Positions 20,283 through 53,842 are shown, counted from the stretch's first letter. The stretch: 64,000 nt of DNA from Caulobacteraceae bacterium (GCA_019748095.1 JAIEQA010000008.1:10625-74624), one strand, 5' to 3'. Made by a program: numbers and translations. The notes: generated by a model from the letters alone, not told the origin.

Positions 20283-20978
20283 GGCCCGATATGGCGGACC
20301 GGGGGGCGGGCCGCAACGGCGGGGCCATGCGGACCCGGAAAACTGTGTCCGGATGGTCCGGATCGCACCTCGGGACCGGTGTGCATCAAAGGGCCACCGG
20401 AAGGCATGGTGGGTAAGGCCAGGCGAATTTTTTGGTGTGCCGGACGAGCGCGTCCTGGGTTCAGGCCTCGGGTCGCTGTGCCGGCGGCACCGGTGTCCGG
20501 CGGACATCTGTGGCCGCAGTCGATTCGCTTTTTTGGGCCCCAAGCAGTTTCACGGTCCGACACATTCGAGACGTTTGTGTGAAAGGGTCATACGACCGAG
20601 CCTGACTCTCCTCTGCCCTTCGCTGGACGCAAAACGCAGGGGCTGCGACCTCGTCCACTTTTGCGGGGGAGGATCAGTCTGGCATGCCCGGCACACCGTC
20701 TGCTCCACCCTGTGCCGGTTCGGGACAACAGTGAAGCTTTGTGGGACATACTGGTCCGCCGCCTCCCCGGTTTCCGGCTCCGGAGCAGAGGTGCATGAAC
20801 CCATGAACGGGGAAGGAATCGACCTTTTCAGCCTCCGGCCGTGGGAAAACGGCCCGCCCGGATAGGTTGACGGCTGGATTCAGCGTTGTTCTGACACGTT
20901 GGTACGCCGCCAGGGCTCTTTCGGCCCCACCCTTGCACTGCCCTGCCTGCCCATCACGGGCATGTCAGGAGCCCCATA

Positions 20979-21593
20979 GTGAAGTCCATCTCTCTTCTTT
21001 CAGCCGTGGCGGCCCTCGCCCTCGTCGCCGGTGCTGCCGAGGCGCAAACGATCAACTCCGGCCAGCTTCTCCAGGGCAATGTGCGGGCCCAGCTGAACGC
21101 CGTGGTCAGCACCGTCCGGGCGGACCTCTCCGCCACTGCGGCTGCCATCGGCAACGGCTTTGGCGCGGACGGCACTACCGGGCCGGCGATCAACAACATC
21201 CAGCTTTTCTCGGGCAACGCCACGTCGATCCTGAACAGCGTCGTCCTGGACGTGAATGGAGACGTGAGCCAGCTCTCAACGGCTATCGCCAACCGGTCCA
21301 GCATAAGCACAGATGCCATGGAGGGCCGGATCAACAACCTGCAGAATGCAAACAACGGCCCGACAGCGATCCTGAACACGGCGGTCGAGAACGTAGGCGG
21401 CGACATGTCGGCGACCGCCGCTGCGATCAGCAATGCGGCGTCGATCAATTCGCGCCTCTCGATGGTGAACTCGGGCCAGAACAACGAGGCCGACGTCACC
21501 GCCTCCGTCGAGTCCCTCGTGCGCAATGTCGCGGGCAAGACGACGATCACGGCGGGTGCCATCGGCAACGTCGTCTCCGTCACCGGTTTCTGA
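20979..21593 (+). CDS. Secreted four-repeat curlin-like protein (first gene of the holdfast-anchor-like locus)
   Basis: GTG 20979 preceded by AGGAG 7 nt upstream. Signal peptide MKSISLLSAVAALALVAGAAEAQ. Four ~45-aa repeats, each ending in an A-I-(G/A/S)-N motif (AAAIGNGFG, STAIANRSS, AAAISNAAS, AGAIGNVVSVTGF). N/Q/S/T/A/G-rich, no Cys. Confidence 0.7.
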   Translation: MKSISLLSAVAALALVAGAAEAQTINSGQLLQGNVRAQLNAVVSTVRADLSATAAAIGNGFGADGTTGPAINNIQLFSGNATSILNSVVLDVNGDVSQLSTAIANRSSISTDAMEGRINNLQNANNGPTAILNTAVENVGGDMSATAAAISNAASINSRLSMVNSGQNNEADVTASVESLVRNVAGKTTITAGAIGNVVSVTGF

Positions 21594-21669
21594 TCCGTCG
21601 AGGAGCCGGGCGGTGTCCTGAAGGGCGCTGCGGTTTCCGCCTCAAAAGCCTCACCAGGACATATCCCCA

Positions 21670-22086
21670 ATGAAACGCTCTCTCTTCGCGGCCACGATTC
21701 TGGCCGGTCTCGCTCCCGCAAGTCTCGCCCTGGCCCAGTCCGTCTCAGGATCAGGTCTCGGGACCATGGAGTCCGGCTATGGGGGTGCGGGCCGGGTCGC
21801 CCACCAAGCCTACAATCCGAGCACACGCGACGCGAACGGCAACCGTCTGATCGTCAACGGCCGGATCATTGACCCGCGGGGGCAGGCGTTCTCGAGCTAT
21901 AGCAGCAGCGATGCCGGCACCGGTGCAGCCTACGCCCAGAGCGGAGCAGGCGGCGGCGGCACGACCACCAGCACAGCCATTGGCAATCTGCTGACGGTGC
22001 AGGTCACCGGCAGCAACAACGTCGTGGTCCTGAACGCACGCCAGACCAATAACGGGACCATCATCGCCCGGGCGAACGCCCAATGA
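21670..22086 (+). CDS. hfaA: HfaA-like holdfast anchor / curlin-repeat protein
   Basis: Signal peptide MKRSLFAATILAGLAPASLALAQ. C-terminal TSTAIGNLLTVQVTGSNNVVVLNARQTNNGTIIA resembles a CsgA/CsgB curlin repeat. Lies directly upstream of, and ATGA-coupled to, a CsgG-like gene. Symbol assigned by context, not by a search. Confidence 0.6.
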   Translation: MKRSLFAATILAGLAPASLALAQSVSGSGLGTMESGYGGAGRVAHQAYNPSTRDANGNRLIVNGRIIDPRGQAFSSYSSSDAGTGAAYAQSGAGGGGTTTSTAIGNLLTVQVTGSNNVVVLNARQTNNGTIIARANAQ

Positions 22087-22949
22087 GCCCGCGTCTGATC
22101 TTGCCGCTGGTCCTCGGATCCCTCGCGCTCGTGGCCGGTCCCGCCGGGGCCGATCCACGGGGCGGTGCGCCCGTCACGGCCAATCCGTCGTCCTATTCCC
22201 CCGCGCTGAGATGCCTGGCGGCCCGCGCCGGATGGTGGGACGGGGCGGCTCCACGTGTCGCCGTCGGCCGGATTACCGACATGACCGGCCGGAACGAGTT
22301 CTATAGCGGGACTCCCGTGCCCCAGGGCGCGTCGCTGTTCGCGATCACGGCGCTCAGACAGGCCGGAGTGCCGGTCGTTGAAAGGCTGGACAACACCGTC
22401 GCCGAGATCGAGCTGAACTATGCGCGCCAGCACCTGCTCTCCGACACGCCGGAGCAGGCGGGTCAGAGCGCGGACAATTTCCGTCCCATCCTGGCCGGCC
22501 AGATCGCGGGTTCGCGCTACTATATCGTCGGTGGGGTGACCGAGTTGAACTACAATATCGCGTCCTCGGGCCTTCAGCTCCAGGGCGGCCAGGCTGCGAA
22601 CGATGACAACAATGCCCTCGGGGGCGCGATCGGCCGGTCGCGCTTCGTTCTGAATGTCGCCGTCGATCTGCGGCTGGTCGATACCCGGTCCCAGGAAGTG
22701 GTCGAGACCGTCACGTTCCAGAAGCAGGTCGTCGGTACCGAGGCGGGGCTCAACGTCCGCGGAGTCAATCTGCGCGGGAGTGACGATACGGCGACCGGGC
22801 GATTGAACGGCGGGACGGGGGCCATGGAGCCGATCCAGTTCGCGGTTCGGTCCCTCGTCGAGCGCGGGGTCTTCGAGCTGGTGGCGGGGCTCCAGTCGGG
22901 CGACGCCCGCGGGGCCTGCCTGCCGATCGGTCCGGGAGCCCCGGCATGA
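22083..22949 (+). CDS. hfaB: CsgG/HfaB family secretion-pore protein, paralog 1 (signal peptide without a lipobox Cys)
   Basis: RVAVGRITDMTGRNEF..GASLFAITALRQAGVPVVERLD and GSRYYIVGGVTELNYNI fit the CsgG family core. N-terminus MSPRLILPLVLGSLALVAGPAGA has no Cys. Which paralog is the true HfaB orthologue is uncertain. Confidence 0.7.
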   Translation: MSPRLILPLVLGSLALVAGPAGADPRGGAPVTANPSSYSPALRCLAARAGWWDGAAPRVAVGRITDMTGRNEFYSGTPVPQGASLFAITALRQAGVPVVERLDNTVAEIELNYARQHLLSDTPEQAGQSADNFRPILAGQIAGSRYYIVGGVTELNYNIASSGLQLQGGQAANDDNNALGGAIGRSRFVLNVAVDLRLVDTRSQEVVETVTFQKQVVGTEAGLNVRGVNLRGSDDTATGRLNGGTGAMEPIQFAVRSLVERGVFELVAGLQSGDARGACLPIGPGAPA

Positions 22950-24088
22950 ACCGGTTCAGATCCGGGGTCGCCCTGGTCGCCGCGGCTGCAGTTCTCGGGG
23001 GCTGCGCCAGCACAGCCTATGATCCACAGACGGGCCTCTATGCCCGTCCGGGCGGCGGTGCCCCCGCCACCGATAACGAGACGCCCTATTCGGAGCCCCT
23101 GCGCTGTCTGGCCTCTGCGGCGAGCGAAGCTCAGCGTGTCGCTCCGCGACTGGCTGTGGGCGACATCGCGGACCTGACCGGACGCCGCGACCTTCAGACC
23201 GGCCGGATCGTCAGCCAGGGTGCAGCCCTGTTCGCGGTCACGGCCCTGACCCGGGCCGGAGTGCCGACCGTCGAGCGCCTGGATCCGGGCGTGTCCGAGA
23301 TCGAGCGACAGTACGCCCAGGCTCACCTGCTCTCGGATACACCGGAGCAGGCAGGCCAGAGCCGCGAGAATTTCCGGCCGGTCTATGCCGGAGAGATCGC
23401 CGGCTCGCGCTATTATGTCGTCGGAGGCGTGACCGAGCTGAACTATAATATCCGTTCGCGCGGTGTGGATCTCGCCGCCGGAGCCGTGCAGATCGTCGGG
23501 GCCAAGGGTGGCTTTACCGGCAGCGACTACGTCATGAACGTCGCCATCGACCTGCGCCTGATTGACACGATTTCCCAGGAGGTGGTCGCCACCGCCTCCT
23601 ACCAGAAGCAGATCGTCGGCCATGAGATTCGCGCCGGTGTGTTCAACTTCATGGGTGGGACCCTGTTTGATCTCACCGCCGGCGGCAGCGCCATGGAGCC
23701 GGTCCAGCTGGCTGTGCGGACCGCCGTCGAGCTTGGTCTCTATGATTTTGTGGCCGATCTCTACAGCCTGCCGCGCGACCGCTGTCTGGCGGGTGCTGAA
23801 GTCGGGGACCCCAGCCTGCTCGTTCGCCGCCTGACCGCGCCTCCCGCTGCGGTGGTAGCGCCCGAACCGCCTCCGGTCCTCGCAGCAGCGCCGCCCCCCG
23901 CCGCAGAGCTCCACGCTCCGCCGCCTCACGTCCATGCCCCGGCCCCGCGCCCCTATGCACTGCCCCCGCGGAACTACACCCCGTCCCCACAGGCCTACGA
24001 CCCTTCATCCTCGACATCGGCCCCGTCGGCACGTCCTCGCTCGGTGATCGAGCCCGGCGCCTGGCGGCTGCGCACGGGAGGGCGCTGA
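22946..24088 (+). CDS. CsgG/HfaB family lipoprotein, paralog 2, with a ~100-aa Pro-rich C-terminal extension
   Basis: Lipobox MNRFRSGVALVAAAAVLGGC. The core is clearly paralogous to the preceding gene (RLAVGDIADLTGRRD, HLLSDTPEQAGQS, GSRYYVVGGVTELNYNI, MEPVQLAVRT). The tail is PPAAVVAPEPPPVLAAAPPPAAELHAPPPHVHAPAPRPYALPPRNYTPSPQAYDP. ATGA overlap with paralog 1. Confidence 0.75.
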   Translation: MNRFRSGVALVAAAAVLGGCASTAYDPQTGLYARPGGGAPATDNETPYSEPLRCLASAASEAQRVAPRLAVGDIADLTGRRDLQTGRIVSQGAALFAVTALTRAGVPTVERLDPGVSEIERQYAQAHLLSDTPEQAGQSRENFRPVYAGEIAGSRYYVVGGVTELNYNIRSRGVDLAAGAVQIVGAKGGFTGSDYVMNVAIDLRLIDTISQEVVATASYQKQIVGHEIRAGVFNFMGGTLFDLTAGGSAMEPVQLAVRTAVELGLYDFVADLYSLPRDRCLAGAEVGDPSLLVRRLTAPPAAVVAPEPPPVLAAAPPPAAELHAPPPHVHAPAPRPYALPPRNYTPSPQAYDPSSSTSAPSARPRSVIEPGAWRLRTGGR

Positions 24089-24302
24089 GGCGGCCCCGAC
24101 GACGGCTCTGCGGGGGCGGGCGCGGGGTGTGCTGCCGCACGGGCTCGACGACTGTCTGCTTTCGGGCCAGGTGCCGGTGTCGAGATCTGGCGCTATTCGC
24201 AAGTTGATGGGGGCGGCCGTACACGGCTGCTCCTGAACCGAACAGACCTCCGCCCCGTCTTCCTGGTGCCACGGCCATGCCCCGTGCCTGCGGGAGTTTC
24301 GG

Positions 24303-24725
24303 TCAGAGCGGCCGACCGCCCACGAAGGCGTGGACCACCAGCATGGCCCCGGCGGCCAGCAGGGGCAGCCAGGTCAGGCACATGCCGAGGATGCGACCGG
24401 CGGTGGCCTTGCTGGGGCTGAGGGTCGTGGCGTGGATCAGTCGGCCGACGAACAGCAGGCTGCCGAGGATGTGGATGATGTAAGCCGGCATGCCGAGCAG
24501 GGTCAGGACGGCCATCGCGCCGATGGCGGCCGGGATGTATTCGGCGGCATTGCCGAAGACCCGGCTGGCCACCAGCACGGCGGGATTGCCGCCGTCGCCC
24601 AGCACGACCCTGTTGCCACGCCGGGCCAGACCGACCCGCACGCCCAGGATCACCAGCAGCAGGATCATCAGACCGCTCCACAGGGCGGTGGCCTGGGCGG
24701 AGGTCATGCCGGTGAGGAGGTCCAT
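24303..24725 (-). CDS. MAPEG family membrane protein
   Basis: 140 aa with four hydrophobic helices. RVFGNAAEYIPAAIG fits the MAPEG (glutathione transferase-like) family. Confidence 0.8.
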   Translation of the reverse strand: MDLLTGMTSAQATALWSGLMILLLVILGVRVGLARRGNRVVLGDGGNPAVLVASRVFGNAAEYIPAAIGAMAVLTLLGMPAYIIHILGSLLFVGRLIHATTLSPSKATAGRILGMCLTWLPLLAAGAMLVVHAFVGGRPL

Positions 24726-52900: not shown

Positions 52901-53842
52901 ATGGTCGAGGCCGTGGAGACGGAGGGGCTGACGCGGCGGTTCGGCCGGCATCTGGCCGTGGACCGGCTGTCGATGCGGGTGCCGGAAGGCGCGATCTATG
53001 GCTTTCTCGGACGCAATGGCGCGGGCAAGACCACGACGCTGAAGATGCTGCTGGGGCTGCTGTCGCCGACGGCGGGGTCGGCGCGGATCTGCGGGATCGA
53101 TGTCGCGCGTGACCGGATCGGGGCGGCGCGCAAAGTCGGGGCCCTGCTGGAGGCGCATGGATTCTACGCCAACCTGACCGGGCGCGAGAACCTCGACCTG
53201 ACCCGGACCCTGCTGGGGCTGGCGGGGTCCGAGATCGACCGGGTGCTGGAGGTGGTGGACCTGACGGACAATGCCCGGCGGCGGGTGTCGGACTATTCGC
53301 TGGGGATGCGCCAGAGGCTGGGACTGGCCCGGGCCATGCTGGGGGCCCCGCCGGTGCTGATTCTGGATGAGCCGACCAACGGGCTGGACCCGGACGGGAT
53401 CGCCGACATGCGGGGCTTTCTGAAGACCCTGCCGGAACGCACGGGCGCGACCGTGCTGCTGTCCAGCCATCTGCTGGGCGAGATCGAACAGACCGCGATC
53501 CATATCGGCATCGTCAACGAGGGCCGGCTGGTGCTGGACGGAGAACTGGCCCGGCTCAAGGCGGAGATGGCCCCGGAGATCGGGCTGCGCGTGAATGATC
53601 CGGACCGGGCAAGCGCGGTGCTGAGACGCCACGACCTGACGCTGGGGCGGGACGCGGAGGGGCTGGTCGTGCGGCTGCGGCCCGGGATCGACCATGACAC
53701 CGCCACGGCGGCCCTGAACCGCGATCTGGTCGAGGCGGGGGTGCAGGTCTTCGCCATCGGCCCGCGCAGCCCGTCGCTGGAAGGCCTCTATCGCAGCGTC
53801 ACCGCGCCGTCCTCGGCGGCCCGCCAACCGGAGACTGTCTGA
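52901..53842 (+). CDS. ABC transporter ATP-binding protein (ABC-2 / bacitracin-lantibiotic export type)
   Basis: Walker A GRNGAGKTT, signature YSLGMRQRL, Walker B LILDEPTNGLD. GAGGGA upstream of the ATG. Confidence 0.9.
   Translation: MVEAVETEGLTRRFGRHLAVDRLSMRVPEGAIYGFLGRNGAGKTTTLKMLLGLLSPTAGSARICGIDVARDRIGAARKVGALLEAHGFYANLTGRENLDLTRTLLGLAGSEIDRVLEVVDLTDNARRRVSDYSLGMRQRLGLARAMLGAPPVLILDEPTNGLDPDGIADMRGFLKTLPERTGATVLLSSHLLGEIEQTAIHIGIVNEGRLVLDGELARLKAEMAPEIGLRVNDPDRASAVLRRHDLTLGRDAEGLVVRLRPGIDHDTATAALNRDLVEAGVQVFAIGPRSPSLEGLYRSVTAPSSAARQPETV

Follow-up and report, generated by a model that had tools for sequence, protein, structure and literature searches.

Results

Organization of the hfa locus

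The DNA analyzed here, a stretch of 64,000 nucleotides from Caulobacteraceae bacterium (GCA_019748095.1 JAIEQA010000008.1:10625-74624), is referred to below as the window, and positions are counted from its first nucleotide. It contains a 204-residue reading frame, here called X, which is followed on the same strand by hfaA and by two tandem hfaB paralogues. The features of the locus are as follows.

20967..20971, + strand: AGGAG, Shine-Dalgarno-like, 7 nt before the GTG start of X (sequence reading)
20979..21593, + strand: X, four-repeat HfaD-family CDS, 204 aa, stop codon included (ORF list, HfaD profile comparisons)
20979..21044, + strand: Sec signal peptide of X, residues 1-22, predicted cleavage AEA↓QT (hydrophobic core, A-x-A motif)
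21670..22086, + strand: hfaA, 138 aa (NCBIfam HfaA, 99 bits, cut-off 50)
22083..22949, + strand: hfaB paralogue 1, 288 aa, CsgG-like (NCBIfam HfaB, 339 bits, cut-off 300; Pfam CsgG)
22946..24088, + strand: hfaB paralogue 2, 380 aa, CsgG-like lipoprotein (NCBIfam HfaB, 370 bits; Pfam CsgG)

The hfaA gene lies 76 nt 3' of X, and its product was 97% identical to the Brevundimonas sp. R86498 protein that bears the name HfaA; for HfaB the identity between the window and the same organism was 95%, and the window is assigned to a Brevundimonas. The two hfaB paralogues overlap by 4 nt (ATGA) and encode proteins that are 54% identical to each other. Reading of the N termini showed a Sec-type signal without a lipobox cysteine in paralogue 1 and a lipobox (LGGC) in paralogue 2, which also carries a Pro-rich tail of approximately 100 aa, is closer to canonical HfaB by score and is presumed to be the secretion channel of the locus. 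The signal peptide of X was followed by the same A-x-A↓Q cleavage pattern as that of the adjacent HfaA, and the first 20 residues of X were assigned a pLDDT below 50 in the AlphaFold2 (AF2) model.

The 435 bp 5' of X (20544-20978) are noncoding, and neither an Rfam match nor a sigma-70-like promoter match was obtained within them. Rfam and promoter/terminator scans of positions 20300-24400 likewise returned nothing relevant.

X consists of four tandem repeats

The first-pass annotation of this DNA, made by eye, had described four internal repeats of about 45 aa in X. When the sequence was anchored on A-I-(G/A/S)-N, the mature protein divided into four units of 46, 47, 45, and 43 aa, each of which was recovered by the unit alignment and by the unit HMM.

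21048..21185, + strand: repeat unit 1, residues 24-69 (TINSGQ...TAAAIGN...)
21186..21326, + strand: repeat unit 2, residues 70-116 (AINNIQ...LSTAIAN...)
21327..21461, + strand: repeat unit 3, residues 117-161 (RINNLQ...TAAAISN...)
21462..21590, + strand: repeat unit 4, residues 162-204 (MVNSGQ...TAGAIGNVVSVTGF)

Two motifs recur in register in these units, (I/V)N(N/S)xQ and A(A/G)AI(G/A/S)N. Their Gln residues (29, 75, 122, and 167) and Asn residues (59, 105, 152, and 197) are spaced by 46, 47, and 45 aa in both series. In Smith-Waterman comparisons with 500 shuffles each, five of the six unit pairs gave z scores of 7.7-11.6, with none of the shuffles reaching the observed score, while units 2 and 4 gave a z of 2.8 (7/500 shuffles reaching the score). 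Division of mature X into quarters gave a summed score with a z of 19 against shuffles, and the repeat-unit HMM found four domains in X, each with an E value of 1e-12 to 1e-15. The repeats described by eye are therefore real; the earlier start at 21054 falls two residues inside unit 1. At the DNA level the period (138/141/135 nt) was visible only at the conserved motifs, which marks the duplication as old. The unit consensus across the relatives of X was SINNTQLNNGDVSATLNATVGDVAGDVSATAAAIGNSASITGDAAG.

X belongs to the HfaD family

X had previously been left without a family name. In NCBIfam its sole match was HfaD (NF037936), at 22.6 bits with an E value of 5.6e-5, covering profile positions 2-183 of 374. 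As the equivalog cut-off of NF037936 is 100 bits, X is not an HfaD equivalog by the NCBI criterion. HfaD was also the only meaningful NCBIfam match of nine relatives of X, which scored 20-72 bits and thus all fell below the 100-bit cut-off. A homologue search with X returned nine proteins, all nine of which have precomputed matches to PF27277; according to the context table PF27277 is HfaD and PF27294 is HfaA. A Pfam scan of X and four homologues, conducted with a Pfam set that did not contain PF27277, gave nothing significant.

The best match of X, with 86% identity, was P0001, its orthologue in Brevundimonas sp. R86498 and one of the nine proteins with a PF27277 match. The public annotation gives this protein (L001:4438-5511) 357 aa, from a start called upstream of the correct one by 153 codons. 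Residues 1-153 derive from translation of intergenic DNA, and it is the correct start that matches the GTG at position 20979 of the window in the alignment.

The link to HfaD was clearest in comparisons of family profiles. The X-family profile detected the approximately 410-aa gene that follows hfaB in Caulobacter, Phenylobacterium, and Hyphomonadaceae, with E values of 1e-15 to 1e-4, and one such canonical Caulobacter HfaD of approximately 410 aa scored 375 bits on NF037936. Alignment of the X family with 15 canonical HfaD sequences by hhalign gave a probability of 98.3% and an E value of 1.5e-14 over 181 columns, registering X residues 25-203 with HfaD residues 31-216; with the signal peptides removed, the values were 97.8% and 1e-12. 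The canonical HfaD proteins are built of eight units in which Gln and Asn are invariant, and the spacing from Gln to Asn (30 residues) and from Asn to the next Gln (15-17 residues) is alike in the two families. X is thus tied to HfaD both by a profile-profile match and by a common repeat spacing, and its gene forms an operon with hfaA and hfaB, although its position within that operon is not the canonical one. With NCBIfam, the PF27277 homologues, and hhalign all naming the same family, the view that the family of X cannot be named no longer holds.

An alternative identity, that X is the Brevundimonas HfaE and hence a fourth holdfast anchor protein, had been raised by the earlier suggestion that X occupies the position of C. 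crescentus hfaE. Like the protein sought, X is small, secreted, and encoded beside hfa genes. The published hfaE genes, however, lie downstream of the hfa genes and not upstream: C. crescentus hfaE (CC_2639) is found downstream of the hfa locus at a distance of eight genes, and H. baltica hfaE is directly downstream of hfaD (bioRxiv 10.1101/2022.07.20.500906). HfaE is marked by the C-terminal motifs PHPASQV, CNERSLLR, and DGGVG (bioRxiv 10.1101/2022.07.20.500906), none of which is present in X. In a six-frame translation of the window, the only one of these motifs found was a lone DGGVG at approximately position 53068, outside the hfa locus. With the motifs missing, the published position different, and all sequence and profile searches pointing to HfaD, the HfaE identity was rejected and in our estimation has next to no chance of being correct.

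An exhaustive HMMER search of 1.84 billion proteins yielded only 354 clusters at 50% identity, and among the top 154 family representatives the repeat number ranged from 2 to 13, with four being the commonest (56/154). X and every short-form relative that was looked up carry the name "hypothetical protein" in public sources, these sequences being beyond the reach of the curated HfaD model. Curated annotation thus missed X, which is no new kind of protein but a short member of the known HfaD family. Short forms also occur outside the Brevundimonas lineage: P0004 (219 aa, four repeats) occupies the HfaD slot in an hfaA-CsgG-HfaD gene order, and another four-repeat relative, of 192 aa, is encoded after a CsgG gene in a Rubrimonas MAG.

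X takes the place of canonical hfaD in Brevundimonas-type loci

Gene order was compared across 47 loci with HfaB relatives, whose ORFs were classified by profiles of four families; HfaA is also encoded by 45 of these loci when the window is included. The span inspected was approximately 12 kb around hfaB for each relative and 64 kb for the window. The window and L001-L008 had the order X-hfaA-hfaB-hfaB' with no canonical hfaD in the spans inspected. X or its homologue thus stands beside hfaA and hfaB in all nine of these Brevundimonas-type loci. L001-L008 are seven Brevundimonas records and one labelled Caulobacter vibrioides OR37. The order hfaA-hfaB-hfaD was found in 31/36 of L009-L044, from Caulobacter, Phenylobacterium, Hyphomonadaceae, and Hyphobacterium; the other five (L033, L035, L037, L042, and L043) had no clear hfaD after hfaB, the profiles giving weak scores or no match, and in two of them the contig ends there. 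X was found in none of these 36 loci. Since none of the 45 loci had both X and canonical hfaD, HfaD is replaced by X in the Brevundimonas lineage. The slot after hfaB in the Brevundimonas-type loci is filled by a second hfaB; the tandem pair was kept in all of L001-L008, while loci with canonical hfaD had a single hfaB.

Several loci showed features of their own. The record labelled Caulobacter vibrioides OR37 (L008, NZ_APMP01000016) encodes an HfaB that is 57% identical to that of the window, compared with 48% for other Caulobacter; it represents either an unusual lineage or a mislabelled record. A six-repeat HfaD-like gene was present on the opposite strand just past hfaB' in three loci (L004:8056-9042(-), L005:8076-9008(-), and L006:8026-9000(-)). 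In a MAG labelled Myxococcales (JABSQV010000100, L045:3761-9287), hfaA and hfaB are followed by HfaD-like genes encoding 637, 395, and 346 aa, the first with approximately 13 repeats. An anchor-like gene set is thus present in a record whose label falls outside Alphaproteobacteria. Finally, L048/L049:4623-6978 carries a tandem pair of HfaD-like genes with six repeats each (326 and 325 aa) amid central-metabolism genes; neither hfaA nor a CsgG-like gene was found within 6 kb, indicating that some family members are unlinked to an hfa operon.

The second HfaD-like gene after hfaB' in some Brevundimonas loci, together with the weak match of X to the HfaD model, raised the possibility that X is a decayed or accessory HfaD paralogue without an essential anchoring role, the real partner of HfaA being encoded elsewhere, for example by the six-repeat paralogue of L004-L006. 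That paralogue, however, was absent from the window, L001-L003, L007, and L008, whereas the orthologues of X were intact and colinear in 9/9 Brevundimonas-type loci (33-52% identity to X of the window in alignment A2). X also has a good ribosome-binding site and stands directly before hfaA on the same strand, 76 nt away. We consider an accessory role unlikely. X instead probably serves the Brevundimonas holdfast anchor as its HfaD-type component, in a short form with four repeats rather than eight and encoded upstream of hfaA.

Predicted structure of X

The first-pass annotation had taken X for a secretion substrate and expected a beta-solenoid if it was curlin-like. Secretion and an all-beta fold were both upheld by prediction, the former by the signal peptide and the latter by the AF2 model of X (10-sequence alignment), which had a mean pLDDT of 84.8 and a pTM of 0.79, with four of the five models in agreement. 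The model has 12 strands, three per unit, of approximately 8, 12, and 16 residues, joined by turns of approximately 3 residues.

Unit 1, predicted strands (AF2): residues 24-31, 35-46, 50-65
Unit 2, predicted strands (AF2): residues 70-77, 81-92, 96-111
Unit 3, predicted strands (AF2): residues 117-124, 129-139, 143-158
Unit 4, predicted strands (AF2): residues 162-169, 174-184, 188-202

When the model was compared with the PDB by Foldseek, the 50 best matches were parallel beta-helices or solenoids only, led by the FapC amyloid (E value of 1.7e-4), pectate lyase, and the CsgA fibril (E value of 0.059). The TM-scores of these matches were 0.06-0.17, with an rmsd of approximately 20 A, and the solenoid reading therefore rests on local similarity and on the identity of the targets, not on superposition. 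The same scores indicate that the cross section of X is not that of any solved solenoid. The expected beta-solenoid is thus favored by the targets, all of which belong to this class, but the models superpose poorly and the fold is a prediction. A search of PDB sequences with the family profile gave nothing below an E value of 0.35; the matches returned, Cwp19 and an antibody light chain, were at chance level.

Twelve predicted strands with short turns could also be read as an integral outer membrane beta-barrel, particularly as X ends in Gly-Phe, as had been remarked before, and the Phe might then serve as a BAM-type C-terminal signal. This ending was kept in the Brevundimonas orthologues. However, only 21/55 four-repeat relatives of X had an aromatic last residue and none of the canonical HfaD sequences inspected did, so that no special meaning can be attached to the terminal Phe. 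Moreover, no outer membrane barrel was among the 50 best Foldseek matches, X is poor in aromatic residues and built of four near-identical three-strand units, and the 2 to 13 units of its homologues are ill-suited to a closed barrel. Given the targets that Foldseek returned and the variation in repeat number, the barrel was rejected, and we regard it as extremely improbable.

The third Foldseek match bears on another proposal, that X is a curlin (CsgA/CsgB-type) subunit and the major fibre protein, with HfaB acting as CsgG. The repeats of X are Gln/Asn-rich, its neighbours are CsgG-like, the CsgA fibril was in the Foldseek top three, and HfaA has been called CsgA-like (bioRxiv 10.1101/2022.07.20.500906). 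Nevertheless, the CsgA match had an E value of 0.059 and a TM-score below 0.1, the profile search of PDB sequences, CsgA among them, gave nothing below an E value of 0.35, and neither X nor HfaA matched Pfam Curlin_rpt at E values up to 1. The curlin repeat is approximately 22 aa long and contributes two strands, with the motif S-x5-Q-x-G-x-G-N-x-A-x3-Q, whereas X has a period of 45-47 aa with three predicted strands. Nor did the locus show any csgE- or csgF-like accessory genes. Curlin membership of X was rejected, as the Pfam curlin-repeat match is missing, and this proposal appears very unlikely to be right.

The nearest analogy for a unit of approximately 46 aa with invariant Gln and Asn is instead FapC. 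By cryo-EM, each imperfect repeat of FapC (approximately 52-62 aa) forms one cross-beta layer that is stabilized by conserved Asn and Gln residues (PMC12392863).

Resemblance between X and HfaA

It had been suggested, from an AIGN motif common to the last unit of X and the downstream protein, that the two are related secretion substrates. The tetrapeptide is indeed present in HfaA (TAIGNLLTVQVTG), and the conserved C terminus of HfaA (TAIGNLLTVQVTGSNNVVVLNARQTNNGTIIA) resembles one X unit with the register shifted: TAIGN-LLTVQVTG-SNNVVVLNARQTNNGTIIA of HfaA lines up with TAAAIGN-SASITG...-SINNTQLNNGDVSA of X, such that the matching region covers strand 3 of one X unit and then strands 1 and 2 of its successor. 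The match extends in order over about 40 residues, as AIGN-x-L-x-V-x-V-x-G ... N-x-x-Q-x-N-N-G-x-v-x-A.

The initial hhalign comparison of X and HfaA gave a probability of 94.7%, which was inflated because the signal peptides were aligned; this value was set aside in favor of the 27% obtained with mature sequences. With the signal peptides removed, the comparisons with HfaA gave probabilities of 22-27%. The X family scored 28.1 against HfaA (P = 7e-4; probability of 27%), and HfaD scored 30.1 (P = 9e-4; 40 columns), compared with 8-16 for the controls, consisting of twelve column-permuted profiles and one reversed profile. The initial repeat-unit HMM matched HfaA marginally, with E values of 0.007 to 4.6 in 14/46 HfaA ORFs. 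The AF2 model of the HfaA monomer (48-sequence alignment) was uninformative, with a pLDDT of 51 and no defined secondary structure. The suggested link therefore stands insofar as the motif is present and the scores exceed those of all controls, while the hhalign probability stays below 30%; the common motif is above chance, but this weak sequence likeness does not amount to proof of homology.

The invariant Asn residues of DANGNR and TAIGN in HfaA, residues 58 and 106, are 48 apart, the same distance as the repeat period of HfaD. On this count HfaA may contain two degenerate units and not one.

Discussion

In C. crescentus, HfaA and HfaD are found at the external surface of the outer membrane and both need HfaB to get there, and SDS-resistant multimers of HfaA are formed only with HfaD (PMC6707917; bioRxiv 10.1101/2022.07.20.500906). 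By analogy, we propose that the X precursor would be exported by Sec and its signal peptide cut at AEA↓Q, after which the unfolded protein may pass the outer membrane via HfaB, the CsgG-like channel whose gene lies two genes downstream. At the surface each unit of approximately 46 aa could fold as one three-stranded layer, and the four layers would stack as a beta-solenoid in which the conserved Gln and Asn form stabilizing ladders. X would then support the assembly of HfaA into SDS-resistant multimers, like HfaD of C. crescentus, and X and HfaA together would keep the holdfast polysaccharide attached at the cell pole. The secretion of X via HfaB, its surface location, its partnership with HfaA, and its anchoring role are in each case suggested by what is known of the C. 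crescentus proteins.

X as the counterpart of HfaD completes the anchor gene set of Brevundimonas. In the studies consulted, C. crescentus HfaD is described only as bearing limited similarity to S-layer proteins and adhesins (PMC6707917; bioRxiv 10.1101/2022.07.20.500906). Mature X, with 180 residues in four near-identical units, should be easier to use for structural or amyloid work than the 410-aa HfaD of C. crescentus. Current views of holdfast anchoring are not overturned by X.

The weak similarity between the units of HfaD and HfaA suggests a testable templating mechanism. In this speculative scheme, which we put forward tentatively and think rather less probable than its converse, the holdfast anchor would be a templated hetero-amyloid: the HfaD-type solenoid, exposed on the cell surface, would offer an open edge onto which the HfaA unit stacks and from which it propagates, much as CsgB nucleates CsgA. 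The scheme would have the C terminus of HfaA contain a homologous three-stranded unit of approximately 46 aa with Gln/Asn ladders, in a layer fold like that of FapC and unlike that of curlin, and this too strikes us as doubtful though conceivable. If true, templating would give a structural reason for the dependence of HfaA multimers on HfaD, and the short Brevundimonas X would be a convenient minimal four-layer model in which to study it.

Among known systems, HfaD of C. crescentus (NF037936; PF27277) is the one closest to X. Both have a signal peptide and tandem units of approximately 46-48 aa with the same Gln/Asn spacing, and both genes belong to an hfaA/hfaB operon. They differ in that X has four units in 204 aa and HfaD eight in approximately 410 aa, in that X is encoded upstream of hfaA and hfaD downstream of hfaB, and in the greater regularity of the X repeats (TAAAIGNS). 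A CxxC pair that all the aligned canonical HfaD sequences share (C358 and C361 in the first sequence of the alignment) is missing from X. X is known from sequence and prediction, whereas the function of HfaD has been studied in C. crescentus and H. baltica. HfaA shares with X the A-x-A↓Q cleavage site and the operon, but its units number no more than one or two, and its N-terminal half (AGYG, TRDANGNR) is unrelated. It has been described as CsgA-like (bioRxiv 10.1101/2022.07.20.500906).

FapC of Pseudomonas (PDB 9u4u), the best Foldseek match of X, likewise has several strands per repeat and conserved Gln and Asn residues. No sequence similarity between the two was found in the profile search, and the TM-scores were 0.12-0.16. 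The layers of FapC, each a Greek-key arch of five short strands, are joined through long linkers, whereas the units of X are directly consecutive, and FapC is secreted via the FapF barrel and not via a CsgG-like channel. With CsgA/CsgB and CsgG, the hfa system has in common a CsgG-family channel encoded beside small, Sec-exported, Gln/Asn-rich repeat proteins, as well as SDS-resistant assemblies, which on the hfa side are known from C. crescentus; a nucleator-subunit relation between two proteins may be common to both. The two systems differ in repeat length and in the number of strands per layer, and the product of the hfa genes anchors a polysaccharide adhesin to the cell instead of forming free fibres (bioRxiv 10.1101/2022.07.20.500906; PMC6707917).
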